Below the pieces are notes generated by a model. It did no database searches. It had not been told where the DNA came from and was given only the letters and a program-made list of their open reading frames with translations. Below, piece by piece: positions 41,507-42,984 of a stretch of 64,000 nt of DNA (position 1 is its first letter; each line of letters starts with the position of its first letter). Origin of the DNA: Octopus vulgaris (taxonomy: Eukaryota); the NCBI GenBank assembly GCA_951406725.2, contig OX597814.1, positions 111,972,001-112,036,000 on the forward strand, given 5' to 3'. The position numbers and the translations under genes are program-made.

Positions 41507-41550
<44 letters not shown>

Positions 41551-41788
41551 TTTAGGGTAAAAATTGATATTTATCAATTAGAACCAGTGGTCTAGCATAT
41601 TAAAAAAGAATCCGAAGATTAAAATATTTATATATATAAATTAAGGACTGCACACGAAAAGTGGACAGTCAACATGCTAGATATAGACGTCAAATCGCCA
41701 TTCTCCACAAAAAAGTTTATGTTCTCAGATCAAACTCAACAAAACCAAAGTAATAAACAAGTGAAAAATATACGAAATAAATATTTAC

Positions 41789-41853
41789 CCATGTACTAAA
41801 TTTAGTTTCAGCTGTTATTTTCCGCAAGGAAAAGTGCAGCATCATCAGCATGG
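41789..41853 (-). ncRNA. Type I hammerhead ribozyme (family A, copy 1)
   Basis: Reverse complement of 42233-42297. Confidence 0.85.
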
Positions 41854-42232
41854 TCCCATATAAAATGTAATTTGCTGGACTAAATGCCAACACGACACCA
41901 AAATATCGCGTGCATGGAGTCCGGCCTATTACATTTGAAATATATATTTCAAATGCCACCACTTTTGGCGCGATGAGACCCGAGAAAATTAGCCTGCGGC
42001 TAATAGTTAGCAGCAGTCAATTTATCGGTTAGAGAACAAATATTTATAAAATTAAATTTAGGGTAAAAATTGATATTTATCAATTAGAACCAGTGGTCTA
42101 GCACGGGTCTCATCGCGCCAAAAGTGGTGGCATTTGAAATATATATTTCAAATGTAATAGGCCGGACTCCATGCACGCGATATTTTGGTGTCGTGTTGGC
42201 ATTTAGTCCAGCAAATTACATTTTATATGGGA

Positions 42233-42297
42233 CCATGCTGATGATGCTGCACTTTTCCTTGCGGAAAATAACAGCTGAAACTAAATTTAGTACATGG
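42233..42297 (+). ncRNA. Type I hammerhead ribozyme (family A, copy 2)
   Basis: CCAUG-CUGAUGA-U-GCUG-[CAC UUUUCC UUGC GGAAAA UAA]-CAGC-U-GAAAC-UAAAUUUA-GUA-CAUGG. Predicted cleavage after 42292. Confidence 0.85.
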
Positions 42298-42738
42298 GTA
42301 AATATTTATTTCGTATATTTTTCACTTGTTTATTACTTTGGTTTTGTTGAGTTTGATCTGAGAACATAAACTTTTTTGTGGAGAATGGCGATTTGACGTC
42401 TATATCTAGCATGTTGACTGTCCACTTTTCGTGTGCAGTCCTTAATTTATATATATAAATATTTTAATCTTCGGATTCTTTTTTAATATGCTAGACCACT
42501 GGTTCTAATTGATAAATATCAATTTTTACCCTAAATTTAATTTTATAAATATTTGTTCTCTAACCGATAAATTGACTGCTGCTAACTATTAGCCGCAGGC
42601 TAATTTTCTCGGGTCTCATCGCGCCAAAAGTGGTGGCATTTGAAATATATATTTCAAATGTAATAGGCCGGACTCCATGCACGCGATATTTTGGTGTCGT
42701 GTTGGCATTTAGTCCAGCAAATTACATTTTATATGGGA

Positions 42739-42803
42739 CCATGCTGATGATGCTGCACTTTTCCTTGCGGAAAATAACAGCTGAAACTAAATTTAGTACA
42801 TGG
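42739..42803 (+). ncRNA. Type I hammerhead ribozyme (family A, copy 3)
   Basis: Identical to copy 2, 506 nt downstream. Predicted cleavage after 42798. Confidence 0.85.
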
Positions 42804-42950
42804 GTAAATATTTATTTCGTATATTTTTCACTTGTTTATTACTTTGGTTTTGTTGAGTTTGATCTGAGAACATAAACTTTTTTGTGGAGAATGGCGATTT
42901 GACGTCTATATCTAGCATGTTGACTGTCCACTTTTCGTGTGCAGTCCTTA

Positions 42951-42984
<34 letters not shown>

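Follow-up and report, generated by a model that had tools for sequence, protein, structure and literature searches.

Metazoan non-LTR retrozymes are described as non-coding units that are repeated in tandem, each with a single type I hammerhead, and that lack LTR, PBS and PPT; their consensus units span 51-972 bp (PMC7229834; 10.64898/2026.07.22.740005). Penelope-like elements (PLEs) have been proposed as their helpers, and multi-unit cDNA has been proposed to be made from a circle (PMC7229834; 10.64898/2026.07.22.740005). How the RNA circle returns to DNA, and which element is the helper, are matters of proposal in these accounts (PMC7229834, PMC7761336), and PMC7761336 describes animal units as having no conserved motif that would indicate a helper. 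PLE insertions frequently lack their 5' part and include a copy in inverted orientation; they carry a tail of 30-40 bp that is frequently confined to one end, and how their tandem and inverted insertions form is called undefined (PMC8557442). The tail lies between two internal start sites of the reverse transcriptase (RT); the protein, a predicted dimer, cuts the two target strands and extends each of them (PMC11167929). Ribozyme cleavage was dispensable for insertion in the one PLE studied in vitro (PMC11167929).

The octopus element described here is, by sequence criteria, a non-LTR retrozyme, which is a known kind of element. It shares with its metazoan relatives the tandem non-coding units, the single type I hammerhead in each, a GC content of 33% and the lack of LTR, PBS and PPT (PMC7229834; 10.64898/2026.07.22.740005). 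Its unit length of 506 nt, which the earlier note took to be unusual, falls inside the published range. For the octopus family, in contrast to those retrozymes, expression, cleavage and circles are predicted. Its head-to-head two-armed insertions with fixed ends are absent from the accessible retrozyme descriptions (PMC7229834; 10.64898/2026.07.22.740005), and its near-invariant core and PLE-type ends set it apart from the animal units of PMC7761336.

In other respects the family resembles EN+ PLEs, with partial tandems, a 5'-truncated copy in inverted orientation, a tail restricted to one end, a pair of internal start sites and AT-rich or (TA)n targets (PMC8557442; PMC11167929), but its unit has no RT or GIY-YIG frame and its tail is 95 nt rather than 30-40 (PMC8557442). 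Like the non-autonomous Chlamys elements such as MRC1, it consists of non-coding units in multicopy head-to-tail insertions, which in Chlamys are PLE derivatives; the Chlamys elements come from a clade that lacks canonical hammerheads and are generally similar in their 3' end to an autonomous partner (PMC8557442), whereas the octopus family has hammerheads and showed no partner similarity in the 64 PLE-containing stretches compared. A literature search that reached few subscription journals and no bioRxiv supplements found no published account of octopus hammerheads, of Penelope-like twin priming with circular RNA, or of a retrozyme source locus or circular template. The comparisons below suggest that the new part is the indirect parent-daughter evidence for a circular template, the kind of retrozyme and its length being ordinary. 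We consider it probable that the element is a very young non-coding 506-nt hammerhead-bearing repeat that was copied from a circular monomer by a Penelope-like enzyme acting in trans.

Organisation and age of the element

The window, that is, the whole 64-kb stretch analysed, corresponds to C1:111972001-112036000, and the element occupies 41544-42953 between TA tracts (Table 1). The earlier note had carried it to 42963, but 42954-42963 is TA run-on. Two head-to-head arms are exact copies of the 506-nt unit and together amount to 2.8 copies (1410/506); the minus arm and the plus arm from 42104 show zero mismatches to the unit. The longest stop-free frame in the unit spans 99 aa and has no similarity to the PLE proteins of the genome. 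No PLE-type RT or GIY-YIG frame was found in the element or the 64-kb window, and two PLE proteins of the same genome gave no match to the window. The element is not an autonomous PLE, as it has no ORF for RT plus GIY-YIG.

The insertion at 41544-42953 is very young, as there are zero differences within the locus, the sole such case among family loci with opposite-arm overlap. The earlier note had described an undiverged non-coding unit present about 2.8 times in a very young insertion, with plus-strand cut sites predicted exactly one unit apart, and on each of these points the present analysis agrees.

Table 1. Coordinates of the element and its flanks, as positions in the window.
Feature	Position	Strand	Remark
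Left TA-rich microsatellite, insertion target	41248..41543	.	226/239 typed family arm ends run into (TA)5 or more
Inverted arm, 560 nt (1.1 units)	41544..42103	-	'Long' (L) end site at 41544 (3' end of the arm)
Type I hammerhead motif	41789..41853	-	Predicted cut after 41794
Head-to-head (5'-5') arm junction	42103..42104	.	Blunt, gap 0, no overlap
Direct arm, 850 nt (1.7 units)	42104..42953	+	'Short' (S) end site at 42953 (3' end of the arm)
Type I hammerhead motif 1	42233..42297	+	Predicted cut after 42292; 5-bp stem I, extended U.U-closed stem II, palindromic stem III
Ribozyme-to-ribozyme monomer, 506 nt, predicted circular RNA	42293..42798	+	42574 and 42594 are the only differences from the C26 monomer
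Best-conserved part of the unit across subfamilies; candidate helper-enzyme binding region	42387..42537	+	Column identity 0.91-1.0 over monomer positions 101-225
Internal copy of the S site	42440..42449	+	TA-for-GG variant at 42448-42449, common to one unit of the C26 locus
95-nt 'tail', internal copy, from S to L site	42448..42542	+	L site at 42542
Type I hammerhead motif 2	42739..42803	+	Predicted cut after 42798
Right (TA)n, insertion target	42954..42992	.	

The family across the genome

The unit is multi-copy in the genome, where a 27-mer from its conserved core occurs at 2343 places with at most one mismatch (control, 0). The first 100 of these 2343 places fall into 58 loci, which extrapolates to a family of about 1,400 loci, and a search with the unit gave at least 179 matches when 40 of 1499 candidates were scored. 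The 63 distinct complete monomers range from 495 to 537 nt, most of them 505-512, and the non-coding, self-closed unit of about 500 nt falls into at least five subfamilies that differ by up to about 20%. Arrays contain no ORF and are up to 6.6 units long in a single arm. Counting positions from the predicted hammerhead cut, identity among seven representatives is 0.91-1.0 over monomer positions 101-225 and mostly 0.71-0.88 elsewhere. The most diverged relative that was traced led to another ORF-less subfamily.

Contigs assembled from four presumed-RNA runs covered 30, 30, 23 and 14 of 30 bins, mostly with alleles of other subfamilies. Some contigs appeared to start at the cut site, but graph branching 30 nt downstream explains them and they were set aside. 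An origin of the locus-specific variants by RNA editing was rejected, there being no A>G excess by eye in the variant lists, and variants that recurred within loci turned out to be alignment artefacts of homopolymers and of the S end.

Structure and conservation of the hammerhead motif

The element has three type I hammerhead motifs of identical sequence. Two lie on the plus strand at a distance of exactly 506 nt and were named in the earlier note; the third, at 41853-41789, is on the minus strand. The type I assignment of the earlier note stands for stem I, the CUGAUGA/GAAAC core, the 12-nt palindrome and the GUA site; its branched stem II does not, as stem II is extended, with a 3x3 internal loop. 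The short 5-bp helix I, the long helix II and the unpaired base before stem II are as in PLE hammerheads (PMC4209133). Stem II is closed by U.U in the window's subfamily and by G-C in subfamily B. G-C closure of hammerhead stem II is probably the favoured one.

The hammerhead core is kept in 149 of 156 copies at 62 loci, and the ribozyme junctions are seamless in most copies. Stem I shows compensatory change across subfamilies (CCAUG/CAUGG, CUACG/CGUAG and CUAUG/CAUAG), and these subfamilies, up to about 20% apart, also show several variants of stem II and self-complementary variants of stem III. Among 14 variants, hand-picked from 62 listed plus one diverged copy, 7/20 pairs were changed on both sides, a value reached in 4/500 shuffles, the significance of which is inflated by relatedness. 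In the alignment of these 14 variants 96% of cells are paired, against 28-42% in slid controls, and a covariance model built from these variants found 2/2 copies of a held-out older subfamily (E ~1e-17). On this comparative evidence the putative hammerhead is more than a chance motif. Against this, the Rfam comparison proposed in the earlier note gave no hammerhead, either at gathering score over the 64-kb window or at E<=10 over 41500-43000, where the only matches were sub-gathering microRNA-like hairpins.

Predicted pairing of stem I falls from a probability of 0.77-0.96 for the isolated motif to 0.39-0.49 when folded as the circle and to 0.01-0.02 within the plus-arm transcript. A dimer fold through the palindrome is predicted to be favourable (-39.6 vs 2 x -14.4 kcal/mol), and the predicted fold of the circle has z = -5.5 relative to 40 shuffles. 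Efficient cutting would be disfavoured by the U.U closure of stem II and by the outcompeting of stem I in the linear fold. For comparison, only one of nine predicted Xenopus retrozyme dimers was cleaved in vitro (10.64898/2026.07.22.740005).

Insertion footprint

The 3' ends of the arms lie at two fixed sites 95 nt apart, S at position 155-157 and L at about 250, each followed by a short TATA run in the template and by (TA)n in the genome. One S and one L end are found at 95 of 96 typed two-armed loci, a count that includes two pairs with gaps of ~230 nt, one of which (L188) joins separate insertions. The 58 consecutive C1 loci contribute one S and one L in 48/48 two-armed cases and 10 single-armed copies; 82 picked loci contribute S and L in 47/48 typed two-armed cases, together with one S+S, five untyped and 29 single-armed. 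By analogy with published insertions, these strict arm ends are the Penelope 'tail' footprint, the signature of PLE-mobilised insertion, although 95 nt lies outside the 30-40 bp described for PLE tails. TATA runs that might base-pair with the target lie next to both octopus start sites; the Anolis enzyme, by contrast, used non-homologous start sites in vitro (PMC11167929).

The 5' ends are not piled up at the predicted cut (3/96 and 1/94). In the consecutive C1 sample 42 of 96 lie at positions 45-66 downstream of it, and in 26 of 48 arm pairs the two 5' ends are at most 10 nt apart, where about two pairs would be expected if they were uniform. The cluster at 45-66 may mark the start of a linear transcript or a stop of the RT at a U-rich tract; it is unaccounted for by a circular template and to that extent speaks against one. 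Many two-armed copies of ~310 bp (L144-L205, C1) have both 5' ends at 45-66 and hence no hammerhead. A fixed MITE-like short derivative was considered and rejected, as the short copies differ in their centres and subfamilies.

At the left flank of L092 a family insertion directly adjoins the TA-joined end of a PLE family with a 781-aa frame, and at the left flank of L074 another adjoins a similar end. Insertions abutting PLE ends in this way show that both use the same TA tracts.

Template and likely parent copy

In a consecutive sample of 105 arms, 30 run across a hammerhead cut site and 18 are longer than one unit, which rules out one linear monomer as the sole template. At several loci, locus-specific variants are common to all units of both arms. 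One such variant is present in 9/9 units of both arms at C20:38.00 Mb (two on one strand, seven on the other) and nowhere else in the genome.

The window has a TA-for-GG change at the S site, present in both arms and at the terminus. A 35-mer containing the TA variant occurs at three internal places in the genome, two in the window and one at C26:15255278, on another contig. The C26 variant sits in a single unit between two hammerheads, and the next unit and the short arm of that locus have GG. This C26 unit differs from the window monomer at two sites, and since C26 carries the family letters at both, the window monomer is the derived one. Another marker of the lineage is found three times on C6, once on C26 and twice in the window, and nowhere else. 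The likely parent is the C26 locus or a close descendant of it. A linear transcript of C26 offers 323 nt upstream of S and 418 nt upstream of L in the TA-type unit, too short to template TA-type arms of the lengths in the window (850 and 560 nt).

The simplest order suggested by these variants is a C26 monomer, then a circle, then the window insertion. As the window differs from the C26 monomer at two sites, there may have been an unassembled intermediate. Both the C20 array and the variants shared by the window and C26 point to rolling-circle copying of one monomer, although the markers place the start of the monomer only within an interval of 255-320 nt that includes the cut site. The parent-daughter pair singles out the monomer as template and gives a sequence-level test of the circle-to-DNA step.

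Helper candidates among Penelope-like elements

The genome has intact frames for RT with a C-terminal GIY-YIG domain, among them 16 of 781 aa in at least 148 matches (150 of 6136 GIY-YIG candidates scored). The 781-aa frames carry a CxxxxCxxC motif before the nuclease, a feature of Neptune/Nematis (PMC8557442). These RT/GIY-YIG elements end in (TA)n, some with 99-100% identical terminal repeats, and the autonomous families seen have tails of ~30-40 nt by eye as against 95 nt in the retrozyme family. The earlier note had proposed a check for linkage of the unit to Penelope RT/GIY-YIG ORFs; in 64 PLE-containing stretches compared with the unit by BLAST, nhmmer and covariance model, nothing was shared except two adjacent family insertions. 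Its suggestion of mobilisation in trans fits the Penelope-type footprint and the lack of an RT in the window, but no helper with shared sequence was found among those stretches. We infer, by footprint only, that the helper is a Penelope-type enzyme. The fixed start sites and the conserved core give a sequence-level test of its identity.

Four PLE fragments near family loci (L073, L078, L121 and L234) are not joined to the unit where read and were judged unrelated neighbours. A motif from the loose end of a sequencing run had no match in the genome.

Two PLE families deserve mention in their own right. A young family (L061-L070, e.g. L064:768-4471) has the intact 781-aa RT/GIY-YIG frames, a (TA)n target and a tail of ~38 nt by eye, and in two copies of the 781-aa family an overlapping frame of 479 aa lies ahead, of no clear Pfam family. 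A second family (L072:2321-5483, L034, L280) has inverted arms that are 100% identical, and its hammerhead likewise has a U.U-closed stem II, a closure that recurs in subfamily H of the retrozyme.

Proposed mechanism and alternatives

The process would begin with transcription of a tandem source locus, which is likely to be C26 or a near descendant of it; two predicted hammerheads would then release a monomer that would be ligated to a circle, as the literature and the genealogy suggest. At a (TA)n tract, the target seen at the insertions, both DNA strands would be cleaved by a GIY-YIG endonuclease. Reverse transcription would be primed by one DNA end at S and by the other at L, the observed arm ends 95 nt apart. 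Both cDNAs would run round the circle, often for more than one unit, and be joined head-to-head in the structure that is observed. A stricter version holds that excision and circularisation of one monomer bounded by ribozymes gave a circle from which a Penelope-type enzyme, as a dimer, made two copies simultaneously, starting at S for one cut strand and at L for the other; it has in our judgement about an even chance of being right. If true, the window locus and its C26 parent would preserve the retrozyme life cycle in the genome, and double copying of one circle would explain the strict S/L ends and also the tandem and inverted structure of PLEs generally, a question on which the family bears.

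The same element and enzyme could have used a linear template, either an uncleaved multimeric transcript of a homogeneous tandem locus missing from the assembly or linear monomers joined by template jumping. A linear template would require that a source had been lost or left unassembled both for the C20 array, with its 9/9 units, and for the window, and fall-off from linear monomers predicts an enrichment of 5' ends at the cut site that is not seen; the seamless ribozyme junctions likewise count against a linear origin. Although PLE ribozyme mutants insert in vitro with unprocessed RNA as the main substrate (PMC11167929), the two window-specific changes hint at an unseen intermediate and the 5'-end cluster at 45-66 fits a linear RNA start, we regard such a template as rather unlikely.

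The circular reading is also to be set against two others. Inverted, 5'-truncated PLE insertions are common (PMC8557442) and Xenopus retrozymes resemble pLTRs (10.64898/2026.07.22.740005), and the unit might be merely the 5'-truncated pseudo-LTR of an autonomous PLE, with tandems arising later by unequal crossing-over or gene conversion. This was already disfavoured and appears very unlikely, as units loop back on themselves in as many as 6.6 ORF-less copies, none of the PLE frames in the loci read is continuous with the unit, and single changes fall independently in each unit rather than in homogenised blocks. That the perfect identity and inverted layout were produced by assembly or polishing is very unlikely: the same architecture recurs with ~1% within-locus divergence at dozens of loci and the window-specific variants are present in both arms, even if the locus is flanked by long TA tracts.

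Other features of the window

A second, unrelated hammerhead-like motif lies on the minus strand at 43156-43201, ~200 nt from the element and between TA tracts at 42992 and 43358. It has a UUGAUAA core (U3/A8 replacing C3/G8), a 6-bp stem I and a palindromic stem III, and cores resembling this UUGAUAA are also seen at other loci and in the 781-aa PLE family. A generic scan gave two further hammerhead-like motifs on the minus strand, one at 18144-18186 with a 6-bp stem I, a U.U-closed stem II and a CUAG palindrome, and one at 14424-14470 with a weak stem II. The plus strand at 4385-4503 matches 5S rRNA with 74 bits, above the Rfam gathering score, with the terminal pairs broken. Tandem and dispersed copies of another abundant short repeat, with periods of 118 and 177 nt, occupy 40457-40926 and 22551-22900.
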